In this document: in pieces, positions 1 to 48,986 of the stretch | Numbering within the stretch: position 1 is the stretch's first letter | How the letters are laid out: each line of letters begins with the position of its first letter | Assembly: GCA_008632985.1 (NCBI GenBank) | Contig: QPGO01000333.1 | Location: 1 to 53,335 of the forward strand | Reading direction: 5' to 3' | Length of the DNA stretch: 53,335 nucleotides | Source: Psammoneis japonica | Taxonomy: Eukaryota | The notes under the pieces: model-generated | Told to the model about the DNA's origin: nothing | The model's input: the letters and a program-made list of their open reading frames with translations, nothing else | The model's database searches: none | Made by a program: the position numbers and the translations under genes

Positions 1-10
1 AAACGACGCA

Positions 11-1357
11 ATGAACGTTTGGCCTTGTGGGAAAGAGTCAACCTGCAAAGAATCTGTGTTGATCCAACAAGGAATGCGATGCCCATGTCGTGAGAGAGTG
101 GCCTTTGGCCATCAATGCGGACACGAACTCAAAGCCGACGGAAAGCTCAACACACCCAAATGGTCAAATCGATGGCTCTCAGAGCGAGCACACTCAGTTG
201 CAATGCCAAGTCATGAGAACAATGAGACGACATTGAACAACAGCGATTCCAATGATGGAGATTTGTTGTACGACCACAAAGAGACCCAACAACACAGTTC
301 GCCAACCTTGGATGACGACCGGGACATCACCTCAGACGAAGACGACGACAGAACTGTGTCAGGTGATTTGGCGGGAGACAACTGCAACAAAGAGGAACTA
401 ACACCGCATCTTGCCTGCCAAGATTTGACATTCCAAGCATCCAACCTCATTGGGTCAGTTCAAGGCGACCAATCTAACATGGCCGCTCTTTCCTCATTGC
501 TCCAAACAATGGCGGACAGGGCGAGACGCGGGATGAGAATCCACGCTGCCTTCGACACTGCAATGTCAGAAGTTGTTGAAAATCCAGCAGCTGCTCCACT
601 GCCTGGCATCCTACAAGCAATGCCACAAGCAAGCAGCCAAAGATGCAAGAGGTCCCGGCAAGAACTCCGGCGTGATGCGATGCATGCATCAAATGGCTCC
701 AACCGACGTCACGGCACATCGAGCAACCGTTGCTCCATGAGATCTTCCAACGATGGTGAACATCTTCAACCGCCAAAGAAAAGGAAGAACACATGCAGTG
801 CTTGTGCCAAACTGAAGCACACCATCTGCACTTGCCCAAGTCTCCACAAGCACAAGAGACCACCACTGGCACCCGGATCACGACCAGAACGTGAAACGTT
901 GCAGGCCCAGCTTCTGAATCCTCAAGTGTTCCCTGCAATCCCAAGAGCTCAATCGGATGAGCGACTCATTTCTCAATCAACACCCAAAAACATGAGTGGT
1001 GTTGTCATCCATCGATCGCTCTGTTGCACCGAAGACGCTCAAGACACCTGTCTCGAGTGCACATTTCTAGGAACGCGCGCAGAGCCAGACGAAGATTTCA
1101 CCAATGCTTTGTTTGCCACCACTGCCATCGTCACGTTTATGTCAAAAAGCAAAACCAACCATGTCACATGCGAAATGAAGGCAGAATCCGTAGCAAGACT
1201 TGTTCCATTGCCGCCACAACTGAGTCAGCCTGCCGTCTCGGACTCGGGACTCACTCAGCATTCCATCCAAGCGCCTTTTGGGACATTCAGCATTCCATGG
1301 GAATTCACTGGACAGGCCAATTCAGTGACAGATGATGCAACACCCCACCAAGTTTAA
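11..1357 (+). pseudogene. C-terminal part of a Mutator-like (MULE) transposase, 5' end outside the window, TpA-mutated
   Basis: SWIM-type zinc finger CPCRERVAFGHQCGH near the start and CCHC knuckle CSACAKLKHTICTC downstream, the usual MULE C-terminal arrangement; only one Tyr in 448 aa. Confidence 0.6.
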
Positions 1358-2359
1358 AACAATCTAACATGCCAACGACGGAACCCAATCGTCCATTGTT
1401 TGTTGTTTCCAACCAAACACAAAACCAAAAAATTGTTTCCTGGAGAACGCATCTGGATCATTGGCAAACATGCCAAGGTCTGCAAGAGTAGAAATGATCC
1501 GTGATGCACAGAGTGATGCAGAGAAGAAGGTCGAAGAAGCAATTCAGAAAGCAACAATGCGGTCGAGTGTGCAAAGGAAACATGCATGCCGTCATGAATC
1601 GGCCACACACCATTGGTCAAAGTCAACAATGCACCACAAATCCAGCATCATCATTGGATCAAGCGCATCGTGACATGTCCCAGATCGACTGCTGTTGTCG
1701 GGTGATGGAGGTTTTGGCTTGTGACAACAATCATGCAGCAAGCATCGACAGCAATGGAGACATGCACTTCGCGGTGGTGCATTCATTGCATGTGCGCACG
1801 CACGCGGCAGCAGATGATTCGAGTGGGAAAATTCGTGAAGTCCCAATGGAGGCAGCTGCGTGATTTCTACGTTGGTTTGTGCCAGGAAGAGGAACGGGAT
1901 GTCATTCAACAAGGTCATTTCTTAGCGACTCTCGCAACAATTTGGAGCACTGCAGTGTGTGCCAGCATCATTTGGGCCATGGCATAAAAGACAATGACTG
2001 AAAAGAAATCGGGTTGAATGATTTGTTGCACGCAATGCTCAGTGCAAATTGCGCGGGAGCGGTGGGAAGGATTCATGAGAACGGATGGCCGACAGGCGTG
2101 GTGAGGATTTGGTGAGGATTTCTGTGGTGAGGAATTAGTGACTCTCAACAGAGAGTCCTTGCCGAGTCGCACGACTTGTGATCGTGCGTGATCGGCACGC
2201 GCGGGTGCACGTCATCATCTCTTCAAGTGAAGCCGCAAGCTCCGAAGTCGCACGACAAGAGCGGCGACCATGTCGCACGGGTTGTTCGAAGCAGCTTCGC
2301 GTCTTGAGTTTGAATCAAAACCAGCAAGCACAAAATGAAGAAAGAACCAAACAACTTCA

Positions 2360-3950
2360 GTGGAAATGCCAAGGGCTCCTCGCCGCCACAATGGACATCG
2401 CCGCCGTGCTGCAACGAGGCGCACTCCTCACCGGCACAGAAACCATGCACTTCCCGCCGGCGGTCAATCTTTGCTGCGCACTTGCCATTTGCTTTGGTCC
2501 ACATCCCTGAAAGGAGTCATTCATTGGACGGCATTTCTCGCCATTTTTCTTCTTGTCATCAATCATGAGCATGACCTGGCAGATTTGGATTTGGGAGAAG
2601 AAGCATTGGACGATGAACAACCCTTCAATTTTGCTGCAGCACACTTGTTGACAGCTTTGGTTGCTTGTCGTCATCTCGCAGATCATTGGGCAAGGCAAGA
2701 TGCAGCCCTTGCTGACATTCCATTCCAAGAAGAGCTTGAAATGGATCCAAGCTTTGAGCGAGTTAGACACCGGCCAATCGACAACTGCTCCAGTGCATGG
2801 CTCAAGATTTGTGCACGGTTTGACCGTGAGCAGGTGCACCGCCTGCATGCGCTTTTTGGTTTGCCACAAGCTGCAAGAGTTCCAGCAACCGGCAACAAAG
2901 CACATGTGTTTGGAGGTGAAGATCTGTTTTTGTTTTCCTTGACAAAGATTGCGGCTGGACTCGACAACGTCAAATTGTGCGAAGGTTTCTTTGGCGGCGA
3001 TGCCAGGCGGTGGTCACATGGATGCCCTTGGTTCCTTCGGCATGCTGAGCATCGGTTTGGGCATCTCTTGGACAGAAACAGTCTTGAGCGATGGGTGGAT
3101 GACTTTCCATGATTTGCGGCTGCAATTGAACAAAAATTGGCTGCACCTTCACGTTGGACAAATCCATTGAATGATGTGCAGCGTTTGGTGCTGGGTTTGC
3201 GGTTTCCGAATGGTGTGTTCAACATGTTTGGATTCATGGACTGCTCCATCTTTGAGATGGAGACCCCAGGAACAGGTCCCATTGGAGATTGGATCGATGT
3301 GCCCCGAAAGCCAAACGCCTGCGACTTGCAGCGTTCAGTGCACATGCGGCATGAAAAATTGCATGGCACAAAGGTCCTCAGCATGGTCTTGCCCAATGGA
3401 ATCTCTTTTGTTTGGGGACCAGTGTCAGCTCAAAGGCAAGCATTTGCTCCCATTTGCAGTGATGAGTTGCAAGCAATGTCCAACCAGCGCATTTGCATCT
3501 GTCGTCTGTTGAATTGTCAGAGCCGATGCCAGGCTTCAAGAACTCAGCGGCATCAACAATTGCTTGTTGCAGCTCCAACAAGGCCGTTTTCCAAATGGGA
3601 AAGTCCATGCAGTTTATGCTGACAAAGGTTTTATGGCCATGCAATGTGTCAGACAGGTGCATCGACCTGCCCAAGGTGCCCCGCTTACACCAATCCAAAT
3701 TCTGCAGAACTTTCGGATGAAATGTGTTCGCATTGCAGTTGAGTGGAGCTGTGGTGTGGTGGCAAATTTGTTCAGGGTGTGTCGTACATTCAGTGATTGG
3801 AAGCTGTGTTGTGAGCATCCATGTGCATGTGATCAATTGAGGGTTTCATTTTTGCTGGCCAATTGCTGCACTTGTTTCAATCACAATCAAATTAGCAGCA
3901 TGGGCACCTTCGGTCTTTCGCCACCAACGGTCCAAGAGCACCTGCAGTGA
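2360..3950 (+). pseudogene. Harbinger/HARBI1-like DDE transposase, disrupted
   Basis: Motifs FGFMDCS, HGTKVLSMVLPNG..GPVS, YADKGF, RIAVEWSCG, LLANCCTCFNHNQIS; in-frame TGA at 3110-3112 (likely CGA->TGA) and a frameshift near 3500. Confidence 0.85.
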
Positions 3951-4099
3951 ACAACACAGACACACTTTCACAGTTCATGTGTTGATTGTCTGGAGAATGA
4001 GTGCTTTCCAGAGGTCCATCATGTTTTGTTTCAACACCTCTGGCGGATCGGAACCCTCATTGACTTGTCCAAACAACCCTGCAGTTGTGCGTCAAAAAA

Positions 4100-5156
4100 A
4101 ATCCCAGCGCATTTTGCTCAACAAGGCGTTGCTTTAGAAGCACTTGGAATTGTGGGACAATCAATGGCAGCAACATTGTCTGCGGATCGAGAACGTTCCA
4201 ATGGCGTTGCTTTTGTTTTCACACCTTGAGTGCAACCAAATCGGCACTCATGTGTCCTGCTGACCCCGCACTTGCGCGCCCAAATCCCAGTGCGTTTGGC
4301 TCAAGTGGGCGTTGCTTTAGAAGAACTTAAAATTGTGACACAATCAACAGCAGCAACATTGTCTGCGGATTGAGAGCGTTCCAATGGTGTCACTTTTGTT
4401 TTCACACCTCAAGCACAACCAAATCAGTGTTCATGTGTCCCACCGACCCCGCACTTGCGCGCCCAAATCCCAGCGCGTTTTGCTCAAGCAGGCGTTGCTT
4501 TAGAAGAACTTAAAATTATGACACAATCAATGGCAGCAACATTGTCTACAGAGTGACAGCTTTCCAATGGCGTTGCTTTTGTTTTCACACCTCAAGCACA
4601 ACCGAATCAGCATTCATGCATCCCACTGACCCCGCACTTGCGCGCCCAAATCCCAACGCGTTTTGCTCAAGCAGGCGTTGCTTTAGAAGAGCTTAAAATT
4701 GTGACACACAATCAATGGCAGTGACATCATCTACAGAGTGACAGCGTTTTAATGGCGCTGCTTTTGTTTTCATGCCTCAAGCACAACCGAATCAGCACTC
4801 ATGTGTCCTGCCGACCCCGCACTTGCGCGCCCAAATGTTGCAGCGCGTTTTGCTCAAGTAGGCATTGCTTTAGAAGAACTTAAAATTATGACACAATCAA
4901 CAGCACTGACATTGTCTACAGAGTGACAGCGTTCCAATGGCGTTGCTTTTGTTTTCACACCTCAAGCACAACCGAATCAGTGTTCATGTGTCCTGCCGAC
5001 CCCGCACTTGCGTGCCCAAATCCCAGTGCGTTTTGCTCAAGTGGGCGTTGCTTTAGAAGAACTTAAAATTGTGACACAATCAACAGCACTGACATTGTCT
5101 GCAGAGTGAGAGCGTTCCAATGGTGTTGCCTTTGTTTTCACACCTCATGCACATCC
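4100..5156. repeat. Tandem array of ~5.8 copies of a ~183-bp unit
   Basis: GC(G/A)TTGCTTTAGAAG recurs at ~4126, 4309, 4492, 4675, 4862 and 5045 with the intervening sequence conserved. Confidence 0.95.
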
Positions 5157-5293
5157 AATCTTGTGGCCTCCCACAGGTCGCATGCCAAAGTCAGACGGGC
5201 CATTGAAAACACACTGTTTGATCAATGACATGAACTTGCTAAACATGAATTAAATCTGAGCCAACAATGGAAAGAAACCAATCATTTGGAACT

Positions 5294-6391
5294 TCATTTT
5301 GTGGATGGTTTGGTGGTGGCATTGGATTCGGCAGGCTTTTTGCCCAAAGACGAAAAAACTTCCTCAGACATGGCTCCATGGAAAGCACTTGGACGCTCGT
5401 CCTTTTCTCCACTTTTTTCCACATCGCTCTTGAGCATGTGCAGCTCCCGCAATGTTTCCACATCCAACTTGCGCTTCTTGGATGCTTGCAGCTCAGGGGA
5501 GCCGAAGGCCATTCCACTTGACAGATTTGAAAACAAGGATTCAGCCCCTTTCTGGGCGTCCTCCAAATTCGTTACAAAATCCCTTGACCGACTGTCTCCA
5601 CTTGCTGATCCATCCAGGCGCCCAACAGTTGCAACTGTGGTTGGCTCAATGTCACGGCCACAGGCTGAGTGCTTGCCTCCATTGAATGGAGCTGGAGGTG
5701 TGAGACCAAGCTCTGACTCACACCTCTCGTTTGTTGCTTTTCTTGCTGCTGCTTTGTTGCGCTCCTCTTTAGCCTCATCTTTCTTTGCTGCCTGTGCTGA
5801 AAGCCTTGCTTCATTGAGAGTCTTTGCCAGCACCTCACATCCTGTCGCATCCTTCTCAGCTCCTTTCGCCTCCTTTGCATCACACTTTGCGGCCAAAACA
5901 CGAACTCTTTTGAGATTTGCTTCGCGCCAATTGCGAATTTTGCTTGGTGCCTCTGGCGGAAGACAGCCTCTTGCTGGTCCTTTAACAGGATCGTAGAACA
6001 AGTGGAAAATCTCCTCCCATTTTGGATCGCTCTCACCCGCTGGCATTGGCAAGTGGGCATTTCGTGTGCTGATCAATGTCAAGAGATCCCAACAGAGCTC
6101 TTGATTGACCTCTTTTGCAAGGTTTGGCAGGTGACTCTTTCCCAGCAATGCCTCAATGTCAGCCTCCTTTGGGATGTTTGGAGCCTCCAACAAAGGTTCT
6201 CTGCCAGCAATGTTGTTGCACGCGGAGGGCTTCACCCCAACAATTGTCACATCCCCAGCGGTGCAATCCCCCTCTCCGGTGGCATGCCCAGTTGGTGGAG
6301 AGTTTTCATCTCCAACACCAAGTTTGTCTGGATGTTGCATCAGAGCATCAAGAGCACTTTCGAAGTCGCAGGTTGTCTTTTTCTCTGCCAT
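5294..6391 (-). CDS. Harbinger second ORF (putative Myb/SANT-like DNA-binding protein), 365 aa, TpA-mutated
   Basis: Inside the TIRs, convergent with the transposase; trihelix-like segment LLTLISTRNAHL...KWEEIFHLF followed by a charged coiled-coil region. Confidence 0.55.
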   Translation of the reverse strand: MAEKKTTCDFESALDALMQHPDKLGVGDENSPPTGHATGEGDCTAGDVTIVGVKPSACNNIAGREPLLEAPNIPKEADIEALLGKSHLPNLAKEVNQELCWDLLTLISTRNAHLPMPAGESDPKWEEIFHLFYDPVKGPARGCLPPEAPSKIRNWREANLKRVRVLAAKCDAKEAKGAEKDATGCEVLAKTLNEARLSAQAAKKDEAKEERNKAAARKATNERCESELGLTPPAPFNGGKHSACGRDIEPTTVATVGRLDGSASGDSRSRDFVTNLEDAQKGAESLFSNLSSGMAFGSPELQASKKRKLDVETLRELHMLKSDVEKSGEKDERPSAFHGAMSEEVFSSLGKKPAESNATTKPSTK

Positions 6392-7397
6392 GGTGCCGGT
6401 GTCATCTCATGGCCCATCAACGCCGGTGTGTGTTTTTGAGTGCTTTTGTTCTTTGGAGGCAAGTCGGAGGCGAGGGTTCTCGAACAAGTCGCGCGAGCAC
6501 CTTGCGCGAAGATTGCGCAGAAGACATGCCACAGATGTTCCGACACTGCACGACTTCAAGTGCTGAAAATCGGCTCGCAAGTCATGTGATCGGCAAAATC
6601 ACGCAACTTCAGTGGACTTTGCATGGCTTTGCGAGGCTGCCCACCAGCTAAATTAATTGAGAGTTTCTCTGAAGTTGCGCGAGAACAAGTCGCACGACTC
6701 GGCAAGGAAGGACTCTCCAATCACTGAATGTTGAGACCCTGTCCAAACACTGTCATGCGTGTGATCACACCTGACGTCGTGGCGCCCAAAATGAGCCTCT
6801 TTGAAAAAATTGGTGGTCATCAGCCCTGTGCATGACGTAATTTTAGGCCACACCAACTTTCATGAGGATGTTCTCGCGAGAACAGACTTCCTCGGAAACA
6901 TCACACCCAAACATCATTCCCCACCGACGAAACACGAAAACAACTGATGTGCATCGTTTTTTGATGCGGCCAAAGCGCATGTGGCTGCACATCACACGAG
7001 GCAACCACATGAGACCATGCATGAGCCTCTTGTTGTCTTTGGGGGGCTTTGTGTGCCATTCTGGACTCTTCTGACACAACCATTTTGCCAAGCAGTTTCT
7101 TAAAATAAGTTCATGTCATGCACTCTTACAGACAACTGATTTAGCCACAAGTCACACACAAGCATGATTTTTTATCAATGGGTGTCCTTTGCATGGCTTG
7201 TTGTCGCCTTGTGGTTGCGTTCTCGTCATCATGGTCATGTCGTTCTCGTCGTGTTGTTATCGCTGGTTCATTCATGTTGTATCTGGTGTTGCTTCGCGCA
7301 CTGTAAGTTTGAATCATTCGATTGATGTCCATGAGGTACGATCACAATAGTCTGGGAACCTGCGCACCGGTGCGAATGTGTTTGGACAGAACATTGC

Positions 7398-8733
7398 TGT
7401 GGAGGTAGACGGAAAGAATGCAACCCTGGGTACAACTGCGCAGGGTCTAGCACTTCTTCTACAGGGTCACCAGGAAAGCACAGACACCGACTTCCGCTAC
7501 ATCAACCTGCAGCACCCTCCAAGACGCGCAGCTGCGAAGACAACCAAAAAAGAAAACGATCGCGACAATGGCCTCCCTTGCGTCGCTGATGTCCACATCT
7601 ATTTTTGCCGCATTTTCCCGTTTCTTTTCGCAGCATTCGGAGCTTTTATACAAGCAACATGATGGGCTAGTGGTGCTGGCGTTGAGTTCAATCCGTCGAG
7701 GCGGATTTGTCGCTGAAGGTGCAGTGCAGAAATTGTGAGAATGCAGCATCAACATGACGGATTTTTGTGACACACCATTGCATCTTTGGTGTTGTTTCTC
7801 ACTTCTTGTCATCATTTTGACGCATGTGCCACAAGGTGTCCACGGGGCTTGGGTTTTTATGGTGCTGACTTTCTCTTCGGAACTCATCGTTGAACAATCA
7901 AAATTGAGCTGCCACTGGAATTTATGGTGAAGAGTTGGCGGCGGTGACATCTCAACATCCCTTGGGCCGATTTTCGCGATTCTTGTTTCGTTGTTGATGG
8001 AAATTGTACAAGGAATCCAAGAGGCTTGGTTTTGTTGTGCAAAATTCCATTCTGTGCAGATGGATTTATTGGATGCCGTGCGCACAGAAATGATGCTTCA
8101 ATTGGAAGGGGCGCTCCAGCGATGTTGTGGATTGAACAAGGAAGAATGAAGCCCTAGACACGCACTGCATGTAACAAGAATGTTGAACATGAATGTCAAA
8201 CATGGCACGGGGTTTTTTACGTCAGTTGATCGTGTCGGGTTGCCTTGATTTGACAGAACATTCCACGGCACCAACCGGTTTGACATGCAGCTGGAAATCG
8301 GCTTCCTCCAGTGTTCCAACCAATTTGACCTTGCTTGCATGGGCAAGCTGTTGTCGCCTGGTTCGGGCGTTCCATGCGCCTTTAGACCCATCCACCACGA
8401 CATCGTTGGGGGTTGTTTGAATGGCCTCTGGTTGGTGAAGTCTTGTTCACATTGACAAGTCACCCCGCCAAGAAATAACATGAGTGCTATCAAGGTTGGC
8501 TTGTAATGCTTTTTAGACGGCATGGTCTCGGTTGTATTGTTGCATAAATCTATCAAAAACGCGACGTACCATGCAACAACCCGGTTGTTTCGATACGGGA
8601 AAAATTCCCGTGCTTCCTCCACAAGAACACGGAAGATACGATCGCTGAAGTGGGGTAACGGTCAGTACAATGTGTAGAATTCAACGGAGAAATACTACGG
8701 AATACAACATGGGTTGTATTCCCGGGATAATGT
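7398..8733 (-). mobile_element. Crypton copy A, internally deleted derivative
   Basis: 7398-8209 aligns with 8731-9549 and ~8212-8733 aligns with ~11268-11784; about 1.7 kb covering most of the recombinase gene is missing. Confidence 0.8.
8212..8523 (-). pseudogene. N-terminal ~100 codons of the Crypton tyrosine recombinase
   Basis: MPSKKHYKPTLIALMLFLGG...SNQGNPTRSTDV is a paralog of the start of 9616..11583. Confidence 0.85.
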
Positions 8734-11700
8734 GGAGGTAGCCGGAAAGAATACAACTCTGGGTGCAACTGTGTAGGTTCTAGTACTTTTCCTACGTTGT
8801 AGGTTGAGAACTCGAGCATCACCAGTGAAGCACAGACACCGACTTCCGCTACATCAACCTGCAGCACCCTCCAAGACGCGCAGCGGCGAAGACAACCACA
8901 AAAGAAAAAGATCGCGACAATGGCCTACTTTGCGTCGCTGATATCTATATCTATTTTTGCCGTATTTTCCCGTTTCTTTTCGCAGTATTCGGAGCTTTTA
9001 TACAAGGAATATGATGGGCTAGTGGAGCTGGCGTTGAATTCATTCCATCGAGGCGGATTTGTCGCTGAAGGTACCACACAGAAATTGTGAGAATTGAGCA
9101 TCAACATGACGGATTTTTGTGATATTGTAATGCATCTTTGGTGTTGTTTCTCACTTCTTGTCATTATTTTGACGTTTGTGATATAAGGTGTCTATAGGGC
9201 TTGGTTTTATTCCGTACTGACTTGCTCCTCGGAACTTATCGTTGAATAATCAAAATTGCGTTTCAATTGGATTTGATGATCAAGAGTTGGCGGCGGTGAT
9301 ATCTAAACATCCCTTTGGCCGATATTCGCGGTTCTTGTTTCATTTTCAACGGTACTTCTACAATGAATCCGACAGGCCTGGTTTTATTGTGCAAAATTTC
9401 ATTCCATGGAGATGGATTTATTGGATGTCGATTGACACCCAAATGCTGCTTCAATTGGAAGGGACGCTACAGTAATGTTTTGGATTGAAAGAGGAATAAT
9501 GAAGACCTAGACATGTATGACATGTAACATGAATATTAAATATGGTATGTAATACAAACAAACATGAACTGACATGGAATGCAATCGCCGTCTGACCCCT
9601 TCTTTCTTTCTGCCACTAAACCTGCAGCAATGGACTCAGACGGTTGTTGCGCTTGTCTTGTTTCAATGCATTGATAATCTGAGTCACTGGTTTTGCTGCA
9701 CCATAAACCTGATACACGCGATCACAAGCTACCTGGGCACTCAATCCAGCTCGGACAAGCCCAGCCACCACGTCCCATAGAACCTTCCTTCTGTGGTACT
9801 TGTGCTTGACTCGACCGCGCTCCTCTCTGGTAAAGTCTCGTGCTGCTTTCCTGCCACCAATTCCATTCTCATACTCTTGCCACAGAATGTGAACAGTCCT
9901 TGGATTAGGGCTCAGGGTGCTCTCATAAGGGACATGATTTGGATTATTATTGTTGTTTGCACCTTGCTGAGGCGGGACGTTTCCTGCCGCTTGTTGGTTA
10001 CCCTCTTGGTTTCGTACAACTCTAAATGCCGGCTGGGAAGCAAGGCGTCGCATATTGCGTTCTACATTTGCAAGTCGGCGCTCCAGCTGTGCATGACGAT
10101 CATCGGAGCTGGCTTTGAGCTCCTCTACGACGCGACGCAATGACCTCACCTCGGAGTGCATCGCGAGCAATAGATTTCGATCGGCAAGCCCGCGGCCGGC
10201 TGCGACGCCCCCATTCTGAGCGCCATTCCCCCCATCATCAACATCCACCACTTCATTGAAATATACCTCGGCATCTTCACCAGTCACCACCATCAATACT
10301 TTTTTAATTGGGTTCTCGCCAATCGGCAGTTGACGCACTCCATTGCATGCTTGGAGAATGCGCTCTCTCAGATGTTGCGGAAGGCACTCGCTTTCCTCTG
10401 AAAAAGCAAACCACAGCAGTGCTTTCCCAAGCACCAAAGCAATCTCAGAACCAAATTTGTTGTTTATTGCCGGCACTGCATGCTCCAATAAAAAATCATT
10501 TGAAACTCCAGCCCCCTCCTTGACAATGTATTTGCACGGGCCTCCAACACAGAGTGCCGAGGCAACCTTGGCATCCGGCCACGGCAACTCTACATCATCA
10601 TACAAATCCGACATGCGCTTGGATATTTTCCAACGGCCACGACAGTCCTTCTCGTCTTTTTGGCACCCGTTTTTGCGGGCACGCGTTGAGCCATATTTTC
10701 TGTTGCTGTGCGAGCCAACCAGTCCTTTGGTGCTTCCTGTTGCAGCAACAAATTCTGGATGAATGTATGCTTCGTTTGCGAGTGTCTTGGTGACTGCATC
10801 CTTCACCTTTTCTCCTCCTTCTGGCACACGAAGGTCATCGGTTAATCCAAAAATGTGAGGTGTGCGTTCTGCGGCACCTCCTGCACCATGGAACACTTCT
10901 AGCCAAATTGCCAAGCCAAGCAAAGAACAAAACTGTGGGTCCATTGCCCCAATGAGAATTTGGTTTGGGGCATCTCTTTCTTCCAGACAGTTCTTTGACC
11001 AATTTAGCCTTGCCCGTAGCGTAAAGTCATTGGCTGGATGGGGGGTGAAATTCTCATTGAGGAACTGCGTGCAATCGTCGATTCGACCAATCATGTGAAC
11101 CTGAAACCGGAACAAGCTTGGCATGAGATGCTTTCGCAGCATGGAATTGGTCTGGTTTTCCTCGAGCATTTTGATTTGAGCCCGGTGCTCCTCGTCTTTC
11201 AATGGTCGTCTCTTTTTTGACGGCGCACCCCTGTTCCGAGTTTCCTCTTTCTTGACCTTTTTGATGAGTTCGTTTACGTCGGTTGATCGTGTCGGGTTGC
11301 CTTGGTTTGATTGAACATTCCACAGCATCAACCGGTTTGGCATGTAGCTGGAAATCGCCTTCTTCCAGCATTCCAACGAACTTGACCTTGCTTGCTTGGG
11401 CAAGTCGTCATCGCCTGGTTCGGGCGTTCCATGCGCCTTTAGATTCATCCACCGCTTGACATCGTCGGGGGTCATTTGAAGCAGCCTCTGGTTGGTGAAC
11501 TCTTGTTCATGCTGATGAGTCACCCCATCAAGAAATGACATGAGTGCCATCAAGGTTGGCTTGCAATCATTTTTAGACGGCATGGTCTTCGTTGTATTGT
11601 TGCATAAATCGATCAGAAACGCGACGTACCATGCAACAAATCGGTTGTTTCAATGCGGAAAAAACTCCCGTGAAAAACACGGAAGGTACGGTTGCTGAAG

Positions 11701-34964: not shown

Positions 34965-35247
34965 CTTTGCCAATTCTGAAAGGATCAAACTCATCATGTT
35001 TGCAAAAAAGAGTTGGGAAATCACTGTGAGTGAATGACAGATTGACACACGCACCCCATTTTAGAAACAAATCTGACCAACACTTCCTTCTGTCCTGTGC
35101 AGCCCAAACAAATGGGGCCTTTTCTTGCGCTTCTGCTGCTCCTGGACATTCTTCACAAACCAAAACATTGTCCCCAATTGCTTTGACAGGGACAACACGT
35201 GACTTGGGTGAGTGCTGAGTCTTCTCAGGCGTTGAAAGCCATTTGTT

Positions 35248-38312: not shown

Positions 38313-38759
38313 TCAGTCAATGTTGACAGGGCCTTCATCAAGACTCACACTCGTCGTCCTTGTCTTGTGGATGAGAAGAGAAAAGAAGAACAACACGCAA
38401 AAAATGGCGGGAAATTGGCAAACATTGCATTGTGTTCCAGATTTGGATGATTCTTGTGGGTGTGACGTGTCTGCATTTTGATTTTTTATCTGGCATTCAC
38501 AATGAACATTGTTCTTTTTTATTTGCTGTCAAATTGCAGGACATTGTCTCCAATGAAACTCAATGACAGCCATGTCAAAAAGCAAGTTGGACTGTTCGTT
38601 GTTGTGTGCAAACACATTTTCAAATTTCAATGTTGCTGACAATGATTTGTGCAATGTCACAGAAAAAAACAGAGTGCCTGGCTGTCTCAACACGACCCAA
38701 ATGACGGTTGCACTGTCGAACAGCACCACTCCTCTCATTGTTGCCGTGAAAAGATCAAG

Positions 38760-40032: not shown

Positions 40033-40734
40033 GCAGATGCAACAAGGGATTGACTCAACCGATGAAATGCTTTTCTTGTTTAAAATGATGTTTACGAAAA
40101 TTAACAAACCAAGGATTGTGTGGCAATGCAATCATGCATTGGCACATGGCAACAAGGTGGAGGCAGAAACAGCGATGTGGACACAGTGAAAAACAGCATG
40201 CACAATTCTCAACAAGTCATTGCAACATTGGTGCACCAAACTTGCAACCAGAGGTTGGCCTTTCATCACATGACAATGATTTTTTGCAATGTTTTGACAA
40301 ATTGTCATCATGCAAATCTGCACATTTTTAACATTTCGTGCACTCTGATGCCAGCGGGGCCAAACTGAGCAAACAAGAAAGCTCTCTTTTGTTGCCATGA
40401 AGAGCATGCTGAAGCATGGAAGATTTGTGAAAATCAGCAGAGTTGAAGACAATGGGTGCTGCCATTGTTGGACACATCCCCGTGTTTCGCTGTGTTTTTG
40501 TCGGAGGTCAAGATTGGAGGTGGGAGGAGCACTGGAAAGCAGCAAGATGTGGCTCTGTAAATTTCTACGTGGCTCTGGTGCAAAATTGCAATGAATGGAA
40601 ATTTTCCTCTTCAGGGCAATCCAAGGCACTTCATGCACAAAAAGGGACAAGAGTGTTCAGCAATTTGCAGCATGCAATCACAAATGTTGCAACTCCCTTT
40701 GACATCTTTTTCGGAATCCAAAAAATCTTTTTTG

Positions 40735-40940
40735 GGGGGGCATCTTTGGAAGCAAGACTGTCGAAGAAAGTTGCACAGAATTTGCACTGAAACAGTCTGT
40801 CAATCAGTGCAATCAGGGCATTTGGGGACACTGGACAGATCCCATGTGTTTGCTTTTGCATGCAAATTGCACTGGGAAGACCCCCAAATGCACTGGCAAT
40901 CAGACCGCCTTCGACAATCTCACTTCCAAAGACGCCTCCC
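40735..40940. mobile_element. MITE-like element related internally to 14643-14853
   Basis: 32-bp arms GGGGGGCATCTTTGGAAGCAAGACTGTCGAAG / reverse complement GGGAGGCGTCTTTGGAAGTGAGATTGTCGAAG; interior aligns with inverted 14680-14820. Confidence 0.7.
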
Positions 40941-43900
40941 ATTCTGGGCCTTGGCTTGCAACCACCACAACAGAAGATGATGTTGCATCTGTCTTCAGCT
41001 TGCTGCTTCTCCTGGACTCTGTTTTGTTCCATCTCTCCATGTGAAGTCCATTTTCATGCCGCTTGCTTTGGAGTTGTCATCATGCAGGCCTTGTTTGCAA
41101 TTGACTGCATCAACAAGCCATCACAGGCTCCGCATTCTCTGTGCTGTTTTCCCTGCACCAGAAATGTTTGTTGCTTGTGATGGATGCACAGGATTTCACA
41201 ATTGTGATTTGATGGGAGGTGAGCTCAAGAAAAAACCAGGGACTTGTGGCGGAGCAGCTTTGCAACTCATTGGCAACATGTTGTGGGGCCGGATGCTTGC
41301 ACCATTCATGCAATCTTACAAACTGGAAGAGCTCAGACAAGTGTGTCAAGTGTGTGGAACAGCACATTGCACAATGTTTGAAAGGAAGCTGTTGGATTCT
41401 CACACATGGCACTTGTTAATCTTGCAAGCCATTTGGATGGACTCTTGGACCCAATTGTGGATTGCAAGGAGACAAAGCTGCGTTTTTGTGCTGATCAGCT
41501 TGTTTTTCTACAATCGTGGTGAAAGAAAGCGGAGAAACTTCAGGCAATGTCTGTGCTCAGGAAGCAGGAAGGCAGCTGCAAAGATGCAGTCAAGTCTGCA
41601 AAGAAACATGCTGAGAAGCAGCCAAAAACAAAAGACACACAAGGAGCCCCAATCAAGATGTTCAATTTTCATGAATTTGCCAAACCACGGAGGAGGAAAT
41701 GCAGCAAATCCCATCGCTCACCAGCAGACAGCATGCTTTGACTGTGCGCTTTGTGATTTTAATCTTTTGTTTCAAAACGGTGTTGGCGTTGATGCAAATG
41801 GATCGTCTGCTGCCTGTCCAAGGCTGAGGACAGCCCAAGGAATCTTTGTCAACTTCAAAAATGCCAAGAAAACTTCCCATCAAAGATGCCTTTTGGTGTT
41901 GCTCAAATTGGATCTTTCTTCCTCGTGCATTCAAGCAAATGGAAGTGGAGCATTTCATCCCACTCATTGGCAAGTTTTGGGAGGGACTTGCTGTTTTGGC
42001 GGTCGAGACAAGTGTGTTTGTTGCGCAGTTGCTTGGCACTGTCAACAAGGCTGTTGAGGAAGAAAGTCACCCCACCATGTGGCCTGCTCTGATTGCAAAT
42101 CCGCGCCAAGATGCTGGGCTTGCCAGACACCAAATGGAAAGTGCAGTGCCATGGCATGAACCAACTGCTGAAATTGCAAAACACATGGCGACATGGATCT
42201 TTAGCAAAGTCTGAACATTTCTGCAGGTGGGTGCATCTGTGTCCTCACTCTCTCAACTGTTGCACATCAATCTCACAACATCCGCCATTTCCTTTTTCAA
42301 GACACAAGTCCAATCCATTTGCATCTTGTGTTCTTGGAAGAGTTGATTTTGTTGGTGCAAGGTTGTTTGGGACAGCACCGCTGCAGAGCATGACAGGGTG
42401 CCTGCCAAAGGCACAGTCAGTGATGGCACAGATCACAACCCACAACCAATCATGTGGCACATTGCAGCTGCATGGCAGGCAAGAAGGGCCTCAGAGATGG
42501 CAATCCAATGAAAGGTGATGCTGTGGCATCAAGAAGACATTCTGACATTTTGGCGGCAGTCCAAAGGACACATCGTCATGGCCCTTCTGAATGAAGTCAC
42601 TCTTGTCAAGGCAACCATTGACAAAGTTTGCCAATCCAAGGATTCTTTGTTGGTGTCAACATGCTTGCTGGCATGCTGCCTCAGCTTGCAGTCAGCAAAT
42701 GAGCTCACAATGCCCCATTTCTTCCATGCAGATGAGCAGCATTGCTGCACTCTCTCTCAAAAAGATCACAAAAGGATGAGGTGGTTCAAAGTGATGGATG
42801 TTGAAGAGCAAGCCTGTTTTCCAGGACAGAGAGCAGACATTTGCACCCAAGACTGTGCAAGCCATCATTTTTTGGATCGACAACAAACAATGTTGTCTTC
42901 CAGAGAATCCATTTTCCAACATTGCTTGTGCATCTCAGCCCTCATTTCAACTGTGAAGGATCACTGAAGAGCCTTTCTGAGAGCCTCAAAACAATCTTGC
43001 ACAATTGTTGTCAAGCTCGTCACAACATCAACGACACACCAAATGTCAAATCAAACGCAGCTCTTTCGTGATGAAGTCACTGCCGCAGCTGCCACAAACC
43101 AGTGGCCCCAGCAAGGGCAACACTTTCTTTTTGATGCCAAGAACAAATGGATCACTCAAACAGCAACACGCACTTGGTCTTTGAATGAATGGTTGCTCAT
43201 TTGGACACGTCCAGTGACCACTTGCTGGCTGACCATGCTGCTCGGTTTTTTCCGATGGATCCCATGGCTCAAGGCTGGTCCAATGCAGGTGGCCTTGTCC
43301 AAGACAAGTTGACTCCTCAACTTGACAACATTGAATGTGTTGGTCAAGGGGATTCAGACAACATGCCAACAAGCACAATGAGTTGTGGAGTGCCAAACAA
43401 GAGCAAACCATGTGTTGGGTGAAGCCAAAGGAGAAGTTCAGATTTGGTCTGATGGGGGGGGCATCCAATGTGCAAATGGTGCAGACACTTTCTGCCAAAA
43501 TGATTTTCTTCTTCACTTCTCTCACATGCTGAACCAGAACGGCAAGCCATCCTTGGTGATTGCGATGTTGCGGTTGGCAAAAACAAGCACATCATGCAAA
43601 ATGACAAGCTGTGGTCCAAATTGAGCAAGGGCCAGCTAAATGTGCTCATCTGGAGCAGATTTTGCACACCAAAATGCACAAAAAATGGCTGCATGCAATC
43701 TGCACAGATGCAGCACTGATGGATGATGTCACAGCCTCCCTCCAACCCTGTGCGCACTGTCTGCGGCTGCCGTGAGCTTCCACAGCCATGGCTGAAATCC
43801 TGCGCAACCTTGTTGAGATCTGCGTGTTTGAGCAACTGAACAGCAAGCACTGTTGCTTGCTTGAGCAGGTGACAGTTGCAAATGCATGTGGTGGTGAGTT

Positions 43901-44466
43901 TTGTGGCTGTCACTTCCTGTCTCTAGAGGGCCAATTGCTTCTGTTGCAGTTGCAAGCTCATCACGAGTGCACTGCAACGTTTTGGTGTGTGACGCCACAC
44001 AGAATCCTGGCATGTTTCCATGCAGCAGTGCATTTTTGTGCATTTGGCACAAAATGCAACAGGAATCATTCAAAAATGTCACATTGGTCACATTCAACAT
44101 TTCACAAAAGAAAAAAAACAAAATCGTGTGGAAATGCACACAATGTCATGCAAGAGAGTGATTGGAGCCAACAACTTTTTGGGAGCTGAATTGAAATGCC
44201 ATGTGATTGATGGTGTTGGCCTTCACCATGTGAGTCAAAATGCTGTCAATCAGATGGCATTTCAATCGATTTTCCAAGAAGTTGTTGACATTCACACATG
44301 GAATGGATGGACAGACTGACAACAATTGTTTTTGGCGGGTGCTGGTGTGCTCCTGCACAATTTCTGCATGATGACTCTCAGGACCCCAATGATTGCTGTT
44401 GGACCCAAAACCTCAAAAATGTGCACTGCACATTTGGCCGGTCCTCAAAATTGAGAAAGAATTTCC

Positions 44467-44735
44467 GAGAGATTTTGTGTGTTGTGACCGTTGCTAAATT
44501 TCTCAGTCACTGTCATTTTTGTGCATCTTTGCAGAATTGATGCCATGATTTTGCATGCAAAAGATTTGTGGGAACTCAGCACTTTCCAAAATGTTGCCAG
44601 CTTCTGCATGCACTTCATGGCATCTGTAGAAAATGCATGAAAATGTTGCCAAAGCAACGTCTTCATTGTTGAGGTCCAAGCTCAAAAGAACTGGCAGGTG
44701 GCACAACACATCATGCCACAGCACGGCATTCAGCA
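44467..44735 (+). repeat. Dispersed ~260-bp repeat, hypermutated copy
   Basis: Aligns with 48987-49241; differences are mostly TA or CG -> TG/CA. Confidence 0.85.
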
Positions 44736-44973
44736 CAGGCTTGCACATTGTTCCATTTTTCATTCATTCTCAAAATTTTGGGCTTGAGTGAACAGACACA
44801 AGTTGATGCTTTGTCAGAACAAGTGAATGAGTGAGTGATGATGTCGCCACAGTGTGAGCTCCAAGAGCTCAAATCTGCGGTGCTGCAGGGTGCACCAGTG
44901 TGCTGTGCCAACCAAAACCAATGTGTGGCTCTTTCTGCCAATGGCAGTTGATTGCTGCTGTCACTGATGCTTT

Positions 44974-46700
44974 TTACACCAACTGCTCACAACACCACTT
45001 GCACCGCAATTCAGTTTTGTGTCTCCAATCAGCCATGGTCTCATGCTCTGACAGGTTCATGGCCTCCAGATTCAGTGGAAGCTCTTCCTCTGCATCAAGA
45101 TTTGCCACCTTGAGTTTCTCATCCCAGTGACCACTCACCATTTGTTTGACTGGTTCCCTGTCCCACCAGCGTGGGTTTGCCTTGAGCATCATGACAGCTT
45201 CCAAGAGATGTGGCTCCATGTTCTTCCAATCATCAGCCAGCACTTTAGATGCAAGACTGAAAAGCCTTTCTGCCTCCACAGTCATGGCACAGATCACAGA
45301 AGGATCCATGTGCTTGCTGCCATGCCTTGCTTTCTTCTGAGCTTTTGCATCTTCCGCCACCTTCAAGGGATGGTCCAATGCTGGAGTGCTGCTGGCATCA
45401 TCTTCAGCCTCCATGACAGACAGACATGCATCCAGTCTTTCTTCAAGAGGACTTTGCATGCCTCCTGTTCAGATTCCATCAGAGTGTGCTCCTTGGCTGC
45501 CAGAATCTTGATGACGCATCGCTTGAACTCAGGTGACTTCACCAAGGTGTGGTCAGTTGTCAGCCAGTGGTGAAAATCTTTGCTGTCATTCACTTCTTCA
45601 GCCTGTGTGACAGAATTCATGGGGTGCTTCTGCAAGCAGGTCATCAAAGATGGTTTTTAATGTTGGGAGGTGCATCACAGCCACCACGCTCTTCTCAGAC
45701 TGTTTCTTGGGAGTGCCGTCTGCCTCCTTTTCCAGAATGACGGGGGCACATCATCATCAAAGATCTTAGTTTTTTCCAGTGATTGGTGCACCACGTCAGT
45801 TTGCACACAAGTTCAGTTGCATGCAGAGAGAACACAGAATGGCAGAGTCAGTGACAGGTGACAGCAACCACAATGAATGCAGCACACTCAGAGCAGAACA
45901 CTTGCGCCACTTTTCCTGTCCACCGAGTGAGCTGCACTGTGGAGGCTTGGGCTGAGCCTGACTCCTTTCTCTCTTGACTTGCCCCAGTTGTTCAATGACC
46001 CACTCAACTTCTTTTGTGTTGCACTGCATTCGTCAACAAACTCAGCTGGGCTGGTGTCATGTTCAATCTCTTCTTTGCATGCAAGATTGGCTGGGCGGCA
46101 AAGAGCACCAACGAATGCCATCACAGCGGGTCAAGGCCCCGGGTGGACTTGGGATTGGCTGGTGTCAGTGTTGTCCATGGCAGCAGCAACAAGGTCACCC
46201 AAGGATGCATCAAGACCACACCACTTGCACGTGGCCGCAAGGAACTTGGCCTTCAACTTCGCATTCTGGGCAGCTTCATCCAAGAATGGTGCAAAAGCCA
46301 GCAATGCACTCAATGCCTCCACCTCCTTGGTTTCATCATTTGGCCAAGGCCAGTCATAGAGCCAAGTGAAGAAGTGGCATCCTGCGGCACTCCACCCATC
46401 ACCCGCACCAAATCCCTTGCCAATCTTTTCTTTGACACGCAAAGACGTGACATCTGAAAGCTTCGCCACCCACCAGTTGCAAATGGTGCGACGATCCACA
46501 CCAGCCATCACTGCATTGCAAAGAACCACAGGGTTGCATGTCCCTGCTTGTGCACAGATGGTCTCCAGAGACCATCTGTGCACTGTCGCCTGCACAGATG
46601 GTCTCGAGCTCGCACGGCAAACACAAGCAGGGACACAAACTTTCACGCAAAAATCTTTCCGTTGGTGGCAGAAACACATGATCAGTCAGTCGTGACAACT
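44974..46700 (-). pseudogene. hAT-superfamily transposase remnant
   Basis: GFGAGDGWS, LLAFAPFLDE, MDNTDT, LCRPANLAC, and dimerisation domain KHMDPSVICAMTVEAERLFSLASKVL..MEPHLLEAVMMLKAN..WWD. Confidence 0.8.
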
Positions 46701-46883
46701 TCGCATCAGCGATCTTGCGACTTCAACTTCTTGCGTCATCGCAACAACCACGATTCTCCATCCCACCGGTGCTGCATGGCACATCGTGACGATGATGCAT
46801 GGTGCATCGTGACAATGATTCCTCCAACAAAAGTGCTCCCTTGTTGCATTTGTCATTGCTGTTTTACAACAAGTCATCGGAGG

Positions 46884-48060
46884 ATGATTTCTGTTCTTTT
46901 TGCTTGGTGGCCAGCAGTGTTCTCATTGCTCTGTTCGAATCCAACCCCAGCAATCGCATCATCGTGTTTTGTTGCAAATCGATTGCTTGGAAATCTGCAC
47001 AAGAGACTGATGCTGTGAGGACGTGCAACAACGCGACTCCAAGCAGTGTCCTGCAGAAACGTCTTTGTGATTTCCTTTGATGGCAGCGTTGCTGACACAT
47101 CCACATGGAGAACACAACAGGGCGCAGTGGCCGCGTTGGACACGTGGCCAACGTTGCGAGAAATGACTGGCAACAATGACAACGACCAGCAATGGCTTTA
47201 CAACAAGCTTGGAATCTTGTCTCACGTGCTTGCAAGTTGACCAGGATCTAGCTTGGGATGCAAGCACGCCTTGTTGGCTCGACTGTTTTTGGAAGAGCAA
47301 GAATTAGATGAGGGAGGATCCACGGGACGAACGGGAAAGTTTGCTTCCCAAGTTCCATCCATCGACTGCGACAAAACAACAGACACAACGACGCACCAAC
47401 AGGCAAGGAAGTGGACCTCTTGCCATGGGAGAAGTCGTGGCCAATTGGCATGATGGGGGATTTCTCCATGAGTCGTTACTTGCAAAGCACAATGTCGAAG
47501 GAGGCAGCCCTCTGCCGCATCTTCAAGTTGCTGTTGAACGACAAGAATCGAACGAGGTGAGTGTGGTGTGGTGCTTTGGAGTTGGGGTATCATTGTGAAG
47601 CCAGTTTTTGTCTCATGAAATGCGATTGGTTTGCACAATTGTTCTTGCCAACTGAATTCATGCAAAAGGATTTCGAGCTGCAGACGGTTGAGCCACTCAT
47701 TGCGGATTCACTGCGGGGTTGCACAGGTGACGTTTTTGTCACAGGGTGCACCGGCAGCCATCAGAATCCATTGCGGTTGTTCCACATTGCACCACCAGCA
47801 CCAGTGAGCTGCAAACAGTCAAGCGATTTGCAGAGCAACTGGACCAAGCCAGCAGCGAAAATGAAGAAACAAACCCATTTGTCGTCAACTCGTCTTGGCA
47901 GTCTCTTCAAAAATTGAAGCTGCTGTTTGGAGACAACATGCCCCGCAAACGGTGAAACGAAATCCCGACGAGCTTTGCAAAAATGCAAGAGCTTGATCAA
48001 GTCAACCTCTCCCTCAACCTGCCACATTGGGCCTGCACTGCAAATCAAATTGCACACAAC
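46884..48060 (+). pseudogene. Host-like gene (conserved diatom hypothetical protein, HAD-like start), pseudogenised and TpA-depleted
   Basis: VFVISFDGSVADT, WLYNKL, LLARLFLEEQELDEG..GKFA, GPLAMGEVVANW; donor GTGAGT near 47557; stops and frameshifts; family recognition is from memory only. Confidence 0.5.
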
Positions 48061-48986
48061 CAAGCAGAAATGGAACCATGGACAAACGTTTTGCAAATGG
48101 GTGCTTCTGTCCACTTGCTTTTGTAAAAGATTGCATCTTGGCGAGTGGCTGACCGCTTGGCATGAGTGCAGTGAATCATGCACTGTGAAGAGTGTTGAAG
48201 CCGGGCCGTTGCACACTGCAAGGATTGCCACAACACAGCTAGAGTTGAGTGCCACAACTGGTTGGCATGGAAAGAATGCGTGGGGCAAACTGGGCCACTG
48301 TGGAAACCAGAGCTGACGTGACTGTCGCATGTGGACACATTTTTGCATCAAGAATCAAACGGAAAGAAATGAGCAGATCAAGCACAAGAGAGACAATCCT
48401 TGAGGTGGCTTTTGAGTGTTTGCCTCAAAGAAAGTGAAGATGTTAAATCCGGACAACAAGTGTGAAATCATGTGGCCGGGAATGGCTTTGAACGCGGATG
48501 TTCTCGACTTTCCTCTTTCAATCCTCTGAAACTGCCGGTGTGTCATTTCTGGGACCAAGTCATGACTCATGCTGCAGGTGAAAACCGAGAGACATCAACG
48601 TTCAATTTGGGGAACGACGAACAAGATCAAGCTGATGAAATCGTCATGATGGAGCAATGAAAGGAATGATGAGATGATGGCTGCCAGGCGATGACGTCAT
48701 TCGTCATCAGCACAGCAAAATCAAAGCCTGGTCGGGACCTGGCAGCGAACAGGACCCTTCCTTTTTTCCACAGAGTGTTGCAGAGACGACAACATGCAAT
48801 TGGACTAGAGAGAGGTTTTCTGTTTTCTAGTTTCCTTTTTGTGGAACACCAAACAAGAGCTGGCTCTCTGTTGTCCGCAAGAAGGGCGAGCCATCCTGGG
48901 CGATCGCGGCAATCGTTGCTTGGCGAACAACAACACATCGTGCGAGACGACGAGTTGTGATCGAAACAGCGCGAAAGAAAAAGTGT

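Follow-up and report, generated by a model that had tools for sequence, protein, structure and literature searches.

The window analysed here comprises 53,335 nucleotides (positions 1 to 53,335 of contig QPGO01000333.1 in the Psammoneis japonica assembly GCA_008632985.1) and contains three bounded domains of transposon-derived DNA from which the dinucleotide TA has largely disappeared, with a gain of TG and CA. Comparison of repeat copies indicates that the loss occurred through A:T to G:C transitions at TpA in chromosomal DNA, after the elements had integrated. We consider it very probable that a targeted TpA mutator acting at the DNA level is real. The full proposal is an enzyme-driven mutator that would convert A to G in 5'-TAY-3' (Y, pyrimidine) within bounded, silenced transposon chromatin, by adenine deamination and in a process of the kind seen in Bigelowiella natans; we regard this statement as a whole as reasonably likely. 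The attribution of the chemistry to adenine deamination, taken by itself, is tentative and falls slightly short of even.

Across the window, 777 TA dinucleotides are found where base composition predicts 3496 (observed/expected ratio, O/E, of 0.22), with CA and TG at O/E 1.56 and 1.50 and CG at 0.68. A first-pass annotation of this DNA, made from the sequence alone, had described TA depletion over positions 1-48960, where we count 607 TA against 3225 expected. Its manual count of 32 TA in 39961-48840 is exact; the expectation for that interval is 607 from composition, or 334 if the local normal O/E of 0.55 is applied. The depletion is nevertheless not continuous. Two-state segmentation of TA content yields three strongly depleted domains, D1 to D3, and three blocks of ordinary TA (Table 1), two of which intervene within the range originally claimed. 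The third, beside the depleted DNA at the end of the window, has ordinary TA and serves as an internal control; no Pfam family was found for its four open reading frames (ORFs) of at least 120 aa, and the block is a compositional control only. Together the three domains retain 216 TA, against about 1500 that the TA density of the neighbouring DNA would predict, and D3 has both the lowest TA and the lowest CpG among them. D3 also contains the assembly gap, a run of 457 N at 39225-39681.

Per 1000 dinucleotides, the depleted domains differ from the normal blocks by -33.4 for TA, -13.7 for CG and +42.8 for TG and CA combined, and their GC content is about 0.50 against about 0.45. Because the process destroys TAA and TAG and creates neither, stop codons become rarer and biased towards TGA, leaving long open frames on both strands of dead DNA: TGA makes up 85% of the stop triplets in depleted domains and 56% in normal blocks, at stop densities of 27.9 and 38.4 per kb per strand, respectively.

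The direction and timing of these changes can be read from repeats. Both long terminal repeats (LTRs) of one retrotransposon are identical at insertion. Those of the copia element in D2 are now 92.3% identical, and four dinucleotides have CA facing TG, two have TA facing a converted form, and 12 CG have decayed in one LTR, next to seven CG kept in both and three other mismatches. Counted as bases, the 25 mismatches comprise 10 at positions derived from TA, 12 in CG sites and three elsewhere, and the five TA kept in both LTRs stand in the contexts TTAC, TTAA, TTAG, CTAA and CTAG. Judged from this alignment, the sites with CA opposite TG are the expected product of independent conversion of an ancestral TA. 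Since sites derived from TA are not alike in the two LTRs of this single element, the changes cannot predate its integration.

A pair of short repeats, one inside D3 (44467-44686) and the other across its edge (48987-49213), differs at 42 of the 228 columns aligned. TA in the outside copy faces CA or TG in the inside copy at 16 sites, with the reverse at two, and CG outside faces TG or CA inside at 14 sites, with the reverse at none; the other differences are five transversions and five other transitions. Similarly, the Crypton-like element contains two related repeats, of which 7398-8191 holds 15 TA and 8731-9544 holds 47, with TA present only in the latter at 34 sites and only in the former at five. 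Columns of the 183-bp tandem array in D1 show TA beside TG or CA in five cases, TG against CA in five, and CG beside TG or CA in nine, and TTAG and TTAA sites are retained in nearly all copies. By the polarity of these differences, TA is the ancestral state, and its change to TG or CA took place in chromosomal DNA after integration, DNA transposons included. The LTR and paralog pairs, together with the tandem array, thus bear out the A:T to G:C transition process at TpA on genomic, transposon-derived DNA that the first-pass annotation had proposed.

The loss depends strongly on the flanking bases. We expressed the survival of TA in each NTAN context as the count in depleted domains divided by the count expected at normal-block density. 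None of about 143 expected ATAT sites survives. Survival is 0.014 for ATAC/GTAT, 0.03 for ATAG/CTAT and likewise for GTAC, 0.07 for ATAA/TTAT, 0.18 for CTAC/GTAG, 0.22 for GTAA/TTAC, 0.29 for CTAG and 0.31 for CTAA/TTAG, and it reaches 0.67 for TTAA (52 of about 78 expected). Grouped by purine (R) or pyrimidine flanks, the 216 surviving TA divide into seven RTAY (1.5% survival), 91 mixed and 118 YTAR sites, compared with 178, 272 and 109 in the normal blocks; among 22908 TA in 73 control loci from metagenomes (see below), 30.5% are RTAY and 18.0% YTAR. A model with independent hits to the A on each strand, whose rate depends on a single flanking base, fits the ten NTAN classes (chi-square 10.9, 6 degrees of freedom, p = 0.09), with fitted exposures by 3' base of 2.63 for T, 1.34 for C, 0.70 for G and 0.23 for A. 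A context-free rate is rejected (likelihood-ratio statistic 233.7, 3 degrees of freedom).

Survival alone cannot show which flank matters, but the products at half-sites give the answer, as a pyrimidine lies 3' of the mutated A in 23 cases and does not in nine (p = 0.02). In the polarised repeat pairs, 18 of 21 RTAY, 17 of 31 mixed and two of seven YTAR sites were converted (RTAY versus YTAR, p = 0.0095), and tyrosine codons preceded by a purine, which form full sites, have become seven Cys and seven His, as the model predicts. From these contexts and products, the target is 5'-TAY-3', in the order TAT > TAC > TAG > TAA, with the strands hit independently. The TpA target named earlier is correct in that TA is lost, and too wide in that the preferred site is 5'-TAY-3'. 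Relative to the normal blocks, the frequency in depleted domains is 0.14 for TA, 0.91 for AA, 0.99 for GA and 1.27 for CA.

The change is also visible in the encoded proteins. We compared the copia pol product with 30 relatives of normal tyrosine content over 558 conserved columns. In the 25 columns with a conserved tyrosine it has 12 Cys, eight His, one Tyr and four other residues; retention is 21 of 21 for Asn, 23 of 23 for His and 26 of 28 for Lys. Single TA to TG/CA steps account for 43 of the 109 replacements (39%, against 8.7% in a shuffled control), the remainder being 19 CG to TG/CA changes, 11 other transitions, 22 transversions and 14 multi-step changes. In the Plavaka-type transposase, 10 conserved tyrosine columns now hold six Cys, three His, one Arg and no Tyr, with Cys kept in six of six columns and His in eight of eight. 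The earlier statement that tyrosine is replaced by Cys or His in every class of transposable element (TE) therefore holds for 20 of 25 copia and nine of 10 Plavaka columns. It is not confirmed for its AP2 example, as the ORF holding WCIG gives no Pfam family at E <= 5. Seven specific peptides quoted in its support each occur once, at the element named; an eighth string, LHF, is present but occurs 31 times and is uninformative.

Along copia pol between 18133 and 21240, the lost tyrosines are 11 Cys and two His up to 20419 and then one Cys and six His (Fisher p = 0.004, with the split chosen post hoc); such a shift from Cys to His would mean a switch of the strand that was hit.

Proteins from other public records also lack tyrosine. 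Tyr makes up 0.1% of P0215, P0218 and P0244, where the family median is 2.9%, and 1.2% of P0006, where it is 3.4%. All four are long predicted proteins of the Plavaka or copia type in which Cys and His are raised, the same scar as in the window. Cluster 3 of the scarred proteins has eight members on several contigs, and its sources are ENA, JGI and NCBI.

The altered bases are carried by contigs of a sequencing run, X1 (Logan contigs): one of 2384 nt at depth 28 matches 25721-28104, and one of 521 nt at depth 36 matches 22071-22591, both with no differences. These exact contigs over two depleted stretches rule out an assembler artefact, though not every systematic miscall. Paralog contigs at a likeness of at least 80% pile up on the depleted regions.

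The position of the domain edges argues that targeting follows place. A young LTR element lies between D2 and D3, and its RTAY sites run from 28589 to 33251, the nearest outside it being at 25100 and 34538. Sparing of the element begins no more than 43 nt inside its ends, and the domain edges match those ends (28546/33271); the third edge lies at about 49017-49045, with the first RTAY of the normal block past D3 at 49045. The LTRs of the young element are 98.9% identical, and all four differences are A/G on the same strand, three of them at TpA. Contigs of this family reach a summed depth of 9000-27000, compared with about 30 for single-copy DNA. In the short-repeat pair 44467/48987, whose copies are 4.5 kb apart, one copy is mutated, and only 12 of the 228 columns differ outside TA- and CG-type changes. 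The sparing of an abundant young family and of one paralog copy is a misfit with a duplication sensor like that of fungal repeat-induced point mutation (RIP). The label 'inverse RIP', in the sense of homology-triggered mutation, accordingly has to be dropped. Targeting that follows place and not sequence similarity fits a locus-tied signal, for example chromatin state or time since silencing.

Two further observations concern this element. At 28584-28586, a non-TpA A/G difference between its LTRs (AAT versus AGT) lies two bases from a same-strand TA/TG difference; one event may have made both, this hit being collateral. In five X1 contigs, with a summed depth of 1794, the element is missing and 28541 is joined to 33272, with five shared letters; they represent either the empty site or element-free paralogs of the host repeat, and imply a target duplication of 5 bp.

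The interior of the young element is itself poor in TA. Between 29296 and 31546, TA O/E is 0.11-0.39, with 0-2 RTAY per 250 bp and CG O/E of about 1, whereas TA O/E in its LTRs is about 1. This suggests that a copy hypermutated at an earlier time served as ancestor of the young non-autonomous family or as the source from which it was rebuilt. The first-pass annotation had named a family already devoid of these TAs as evidence that would overturn its proposal, and the young interior does provide a partial case, the only one here.

CG O/E is 0.48-0.70 in the depleted domains, and the polarised CG losses (14 versus 0) read as ordinary deamination of 5-methylcytosine (5mC) in repeats that would be methylated. 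Deamination of 5mC at CpG cannot remove TA, and the loss of TA without loss of CG in the young interior shows that the two decays are separable. Using the copia LTRs as a clock, a rough rate can be given. The element retains 32 TA where about 256 are expected at normal-block density (survival 0.125), and its LTRs have diverged by 0.96% (three sites) at non-TA, non-CG positions, so that TA has been lost roughly 435 times faster than ordinary sites have changed.

All recognisable content in the depleted DNA is transposon-derived and belongs to copia, Plavaka, DDE_Tnp_4 and hAT elements (Table 1). In the copia element, RVT_2 is detected above its curated cut-off (E = 2.8e-17) and gag_pre-integrs below it (26.8 bits against 28.4), and pol aligns with P0001 without interruption. 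The Pfam match of the Plavaka-type ORF is below the curated cut-off, but the ORF has 495 homologs at E <= 1e-10; it contains eight TA (O/E 0.05) and no RTAY. The Crypton-like element lies in the first of the ordinary blocks and is unevenly depleted, with sub-blocks at TA O/E 0.14-0.25 adjoining others at 0.8-1.0. Atlas neighbours of its 677-aa ORF carry NDC10_II, GCR1_C and Phage_integrase, and besides the repeat pair described above, 8216-8733 resembles 11273-11784.

Table 1. Domains, blocks and transposon-derived features of the window (positions in the window; O/E, observed/expected ratio)
Feature	Position	Strand	Evidence or composition
Domain D1, TA-depleted	1-7100		48 TA, TA O/E 0.11; CG 0.70; TG 1.56; CA 1.61
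DDE_Tnp_4 (PIF/Harbinger-type) transposase remnant, D1	3513-3947	+	Pfam PF13359, E = 2.3e-6, 27.8 bits against cut-off 24.8
Tandem array, 183 bp x 5.8 copies, D1	4099-5160		TRF
Near-ordinary TA block	7101-12399		TA O/E 0.51; some sub-blocks partly depleted
Crypton-like element with internal repeats	7101-12399		677-aa ORF 9619-11649(-) with GCR1_C
Domain D2, TA-depleted, houses copia	12400-28550		112 TA, TA O/E 0.11; CG O/E 0.64
Hypermutated copia LTR retrotransposon, D2	15578-22135	+	LTRs 15578-15925 and 21786-22135; pol 17995-21734
Young non-autonomous, very high-copy LTR element	28546-33271		LTRs 28546-28913 and 32904-33271
Ordinary TA block	28551-33254		TA O/E 0.51
Domain D3, TA-depleted	33255-49016		56 TA, TA O/E 0.06; CG 0.48; TG 1.70; CA 1.76
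Hypermutated Plavaka-type DNA transposase ORF, 898 aa, 2 Tyr	35251-37944	-	Pfam Plavaka, E = 3e-4
Mutated short-repeat copy, D3	44467-44686		2 TA
hAT transposase C-terminal remnant, D3	44977-45468	-	Dimer_Tnp_hAT, E = 4.5e-4, 20.4 bits, below curated cut-off 21.4
Unmutated partner copy, across D3 edge	48987-49213		16 TA
Flanking ordinary-TA block, internal control	49017-53335		170 TA, TA O/E 0.57; CG O/E 0.98

Contigs of a second data set, X2 (presumed DNA), are about 90% identical to the copia body at 16631-20296 and skip 12 segments of 77-113 nt inside the intact sense-strand pol frame. On the minus strand the skipped segments start with GTCAGT, GTGAGT or GCAAGT, with G[TC][AG]AGT placed precisely at the boundary in six of the 12, and the majority finish with AG. 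Their appearance is that of introns in a spliced antisense transcript from a related copy. Of these starts, GCAAGT and GTGAGT correspond to GTAAGT after a change of TA to CA or to TG.

As an external control we used 73 metagenome loci of at least 1.5 kb encoding Plavaka-type transposases, drawn from 79 loci found with alignment A1. Their TA O/E is 0.35-0.82 (median 0.59), compared with 0.05 for the Plavaka-type ORF of the window, and none of the 73 shows the extreme TA-loss signature. With ordinary TA in these loci, TA poverty is not a trait of the Plavaka superfamily. A metagenome scan with P0218 returned 21 pattern matches, none of which was confirmed. The sole control locus with a partial signature is L047, a metagenome contig of 4040 bases with TA O/E 0.35 throughout and CG O/E 0.92; its 66 TA include six RTAY and 21 YTAR, against the pooled proportions given above. 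Possibly it represents a copy, in a different organism, that has undergone mild hypermutation.

The closest precedent comes from the chlorarachniophyte B. natans. In mutation-accumulation lines of this alga, two viral inserts acquired 231 mutations, of which 230 were A>G or T>C, all at TpA, and in the region derived from a nucleocytoplasmic large DNA virus (NCLDV) 210 of 211 de novo mutations were of these two types (bioRxiv 10.64898/2026.01.13.699255). The rate was about 6e-7 per site per generation in the inserts and 3.5e-10 elsewhere, a difference of more than 1000-fold (Mettrop et al., bioRxiv 10.64898/2026.01.13.699255). TpA hypermutation has thus already been described, arising de novo (Mettrop et al., bioRxiv 10.64898/2026.01.13.699255). 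Our literature search for the signature yielded the Bigelowiella preprint and papers on RIP and nothing else, with no report for diatoms.

As far as can be read from sequence, every feature of the B. natans process that is testable in the window is present. In both cases A>G or T>C transitions turn TpA into TpG or CpA, the changes are restricted to integrated foreign or selfish DNA (NCLDV and virophage there) while the neighbouring genome is spared, and the rate exceeds the background by orders of magnitude, the value of about 435-fold here being not far below the more than 1000-fold there. TpA-depleted coding sequences of B. natans are enriched in reverse transcriptase and DDE domains, a further likeness to the window. 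In contrast to the mutations observed de novo in B. natans, where TA in the insert is only mildly depleted (Rho 0.45), those described here are deduced from the sequence and have nearly reached saturation (O/E 0.06-0.11). Transposons of four classes form the main targets in the window, and there is strong CpG decay as an additional process. The host lineage is also different, with weak hints of a diatom from Atlas neighbours, the few recorded members of which belong to the Bacillariophyta and not to fungi. The main text of the preprint gives no flanking-base rule (the words context, flanking, trinucleotide and tetranucleotide have no uses in it), in contrast to the TAY rule found here. What the present analysis adds is the TAY rule, the positional targeting, the rate estimate, the separability from CpG decay and the scar in proteins from other records.

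RIP converts mostly CpA to TpA, raises AT content, is triggered by duplication, acts premeiotically, depends on RID/DIM-2 and is found in the Pezizomycotina. The window resembles RIP in its near-saturating, dinucleotide-specific transitions, in the permanent inactivation of transposons and in the skewed blocks lying beside normal genes. Unlike in RIP, TpA is destroyed here and not made, the depleted domains are richer in GC, and the copies of a repeat are not hit together (for RIP in Neurospora and other Pezizomycotina, see the accessible text of PMC7296669, PMC7882544 and PMC2621366). Context-specific deamination directed against selfish nucleic acids is likewise known from APOBEC3, which acts as C>U on cDNA, and from ADAR, which acts as A>I on dsRNA (discussed in bioRxiv 10.64898/2026.01.13.699255). 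ADAR shares the preference for a 5' U, but the preferred 3' base is a pyrimidine here. Unlike for both enzymes, the substrate in the window is resident chromosomal duplex DNA, DNA transposons included. The change is A>G and not C>T.

With respect to mechanism, we propose that an enzyme would convert the A of 5'-TAY-3' to G on either strand, TA becoming TG or CA, within sharply bounded stretches of integrated transposons, while adjacent DNA is spared. The domains would correspond to silenced chromatin marked by 5mC, to which a chromatin or small-RNA signal would recruit the mutator. The adenine would be turned into hypoxanthine by a polynucleotide deaminase (ADAT2/TadA-like, or another enzyme of the deaminase fold), which the following round of replication would read as G. 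The process would be of the same kind as the TpA hypermutation of B. natans. As far as is known, U33 always precedes A34 in the tRNA substrates of TadA and ADAT2, and this matches the need for TpA. Adenine deamination is favoured by the invariant 5' T, by the reported activity of an ADAT2 on DNA, and by the bursts of mutation in some B. natans lines only. DNA editing is reported for amphioxus BjADAT2 in the accessible text of PMC10354150, and a Trypanosoma ADAT2 with DNA-editing activity is cited in bioRxiv 10.64898/2026.01.13.699255; the reported activities on DNA are A>I and C>U. For B. natans itself Mettrop et al. propose ADAT2/3 (bioRxiv 10.64898/2026.01.13.699255).

Several points weigh against this proposal. 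TpA is self-complementary, so that sequence by itself cannot tell whether A or T was the base attacked. The A34-containing tRNAs of eukaryotic ADAT2/3 have G, A or C at position 35, and bacterial TadA acts on UACG; the 3' preference for T and then C in the window is therefore matched by TadA only for C, and the 3' pyrimidine is unlike the eukaryotic A34 substrates. A strand-patch test on the order of RTGY and RCAY found no clustering in the three domains (z = 0.25, 0.96 and -0.14), in an ancestor-free design of low power (874 TG-type and 1009 CA-type sites, of which about one fifth are conversion products). The ratio of about 435 is scaled by only three background mismatches. The TA-poor interior between TA-rich, near-identical LTRs means that a family can inherit an old scar. 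Finally, the run X1 is probably derived from the sample of the window itself and is not fully independent of the assembly.

The ambiguity of the attacked base is what gives weight to a chemistry centred on thymine, an unlikely but serious competitor. Here a dioxygenase of the TET/JBP type would oxidise the T of 5'-RTA-3' in silenced transposons to 5-hydroxymethyluracil (5hmU) and 5-formyluracil (5fU), and occasional mispairing with G would give T>C. 5fU does mispair with G, and 5'-TAY-3' on one strand is 5'-RTA-3' on the complement. The mark at TpA would possibly be symmetric and heritable, its decay to CpA/TpG resembling that of 5mCpG to TpG/CpA, and CpG decay, a sign of a modified pyrimidine, is found in the same domains. 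Dinoflagellates are SAR (stramenopile, alveolate and rhizarian) algae. Their 5hmU is described in the accessible text of PMC11572971 as enriched on repeats and linked to TE silencing, with activation of the marked TEs when it is lowered, and older work cited in the accessible text of PMC11071213 placed 5hmU preferentially at TA and TC; for phage T-dioxygenases, the accessible text of PMC13229309 gives a preference for NTC or NTG over NTA. Against this, the base-resolution map of Breviolum shows no sequence preference or motif of 5hmU according to the accessible text of PMC11071213, and dinoflagellate 5hmU is presented as an epigenetic mark and not as a mutator, with no TpA loss in the accessible text of PMC11572971. 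Our search of the literature found no evidence of 5hmU in diatoms. The TA loss without CpG loss in the young interior makes the two decays separable, and the bursts of two to 45 mutations per line in some B. natans lines only fit episodic attack by an enzyme better than a standing mark that mispairs slowly.

A true mirror of RIP, sensing duplication by homology and mutating all copies of a repeat, would account for the wholly transposon-derived nature of the recognisable depleted content and for the pile-up of paralog contigs there; it is improbable, as one copy only of the pair 44467-44686/48987-49213 is mutated, the high-copy young LTR family is unmutated here, and the main hypermutated insert of B. 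natans is single-copy. Error-prone repair synthesis by a Pol eta-like polymerase on methylated chromatin, a candidate of the first-pass annotation, is more doubtful still. The WA preference (W, A or T) of this polymerase includes TA, but AA remains at 0.91 of its normal-block frequency against 0.14 for TA, non-TA A/G differences number only two of 25 in the copia LTR pair and three of 42 in the paralog pair, and the strong dependence on the 3' base is not a known part of the WA rule. We disfavour this candidate for its undepleted AA and its few non-TA A/G differences. A-to-I editing of transposon transcripts by an ADAR-like or fungal-type enzyme, fixed by reverse transcription, would explain the T 5' of the edited A, since a 5' U is typical of such enzymes (see also bioRxiv 10.64898/2026.01.13.699255). 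It is hardly credible here: a single element has LTRs that disagree where TA once stood, the Plavaka DNA transposon and the tandem array share the scar, and the 3' order T > C > G > A runs counter to that of ADAR, which prefers G at the 3' side. As sole cause, RNA editing is refuted by the LTR differences together with a DNA transposon that has no RNA intermediate. Just as scarcely probable is the absence of any mutation process, the pattern being due to a sequencing or assembly artefact (e.g. miscalls at a modified base) or to families that were ancestrally poor in TA. The probable identity of the X1 sample with that of the assembly and the TA-poor interior of the young element speak for it. 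Exact k-mer contigs at depth 28-36 reproduce the depleted DNA, P0215, P0218, P0244 and P0006 in other public records carry the tyrosine-less scar, the LTR-pair and paralog differences are polarised, and the 73 Plavaka-type loci elsewhere have TA O/E 0.35-0.82, all of which speak against it.

The proposed TpA mutator has consequences for the annotation of such genomes. Dead transposons with very long frames mislead gene callers and yield predicted proteins nearly free of tyrosine, such as P0215, P0218 and P0244. Repeats also become richer in GC through the process, and ages of transposons estimated from the divergence of their LTRs can be misleading. The order TAT > TAC > TAG > TAA constitutes a biochemical fingerprint for an enzyme hunt and, with a rate of about 400-fold, allows concrete assays. 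A natural enzyme making A:T to G:C changes in chromosomal DNA would be of interest to the field of base editing. If a thymine dioxygenase were responsible instead, TpA would be a second 'CpG-like' epigenetic dinucleotide, bearing a symmetric and heritable mark whose decay is seen here. More speculatively, and in our view less likely than not, a chromatin-guided DNA-editing defence may be common to distant SAR algae (Rhizaria, from the Bigelowiella case, and a probable diatom), rewriting 5'-TAY-3' in silenced mobile or viral DNA by means of a duplex-DNA adenine deaminase or a thymine dioxygenase. If one enzyme system is at work in a chlorarachniophyte and in a diatom-like alga, targeted DNA editing as a defence would be wider than fungal RIP and the APOBECs of animals.

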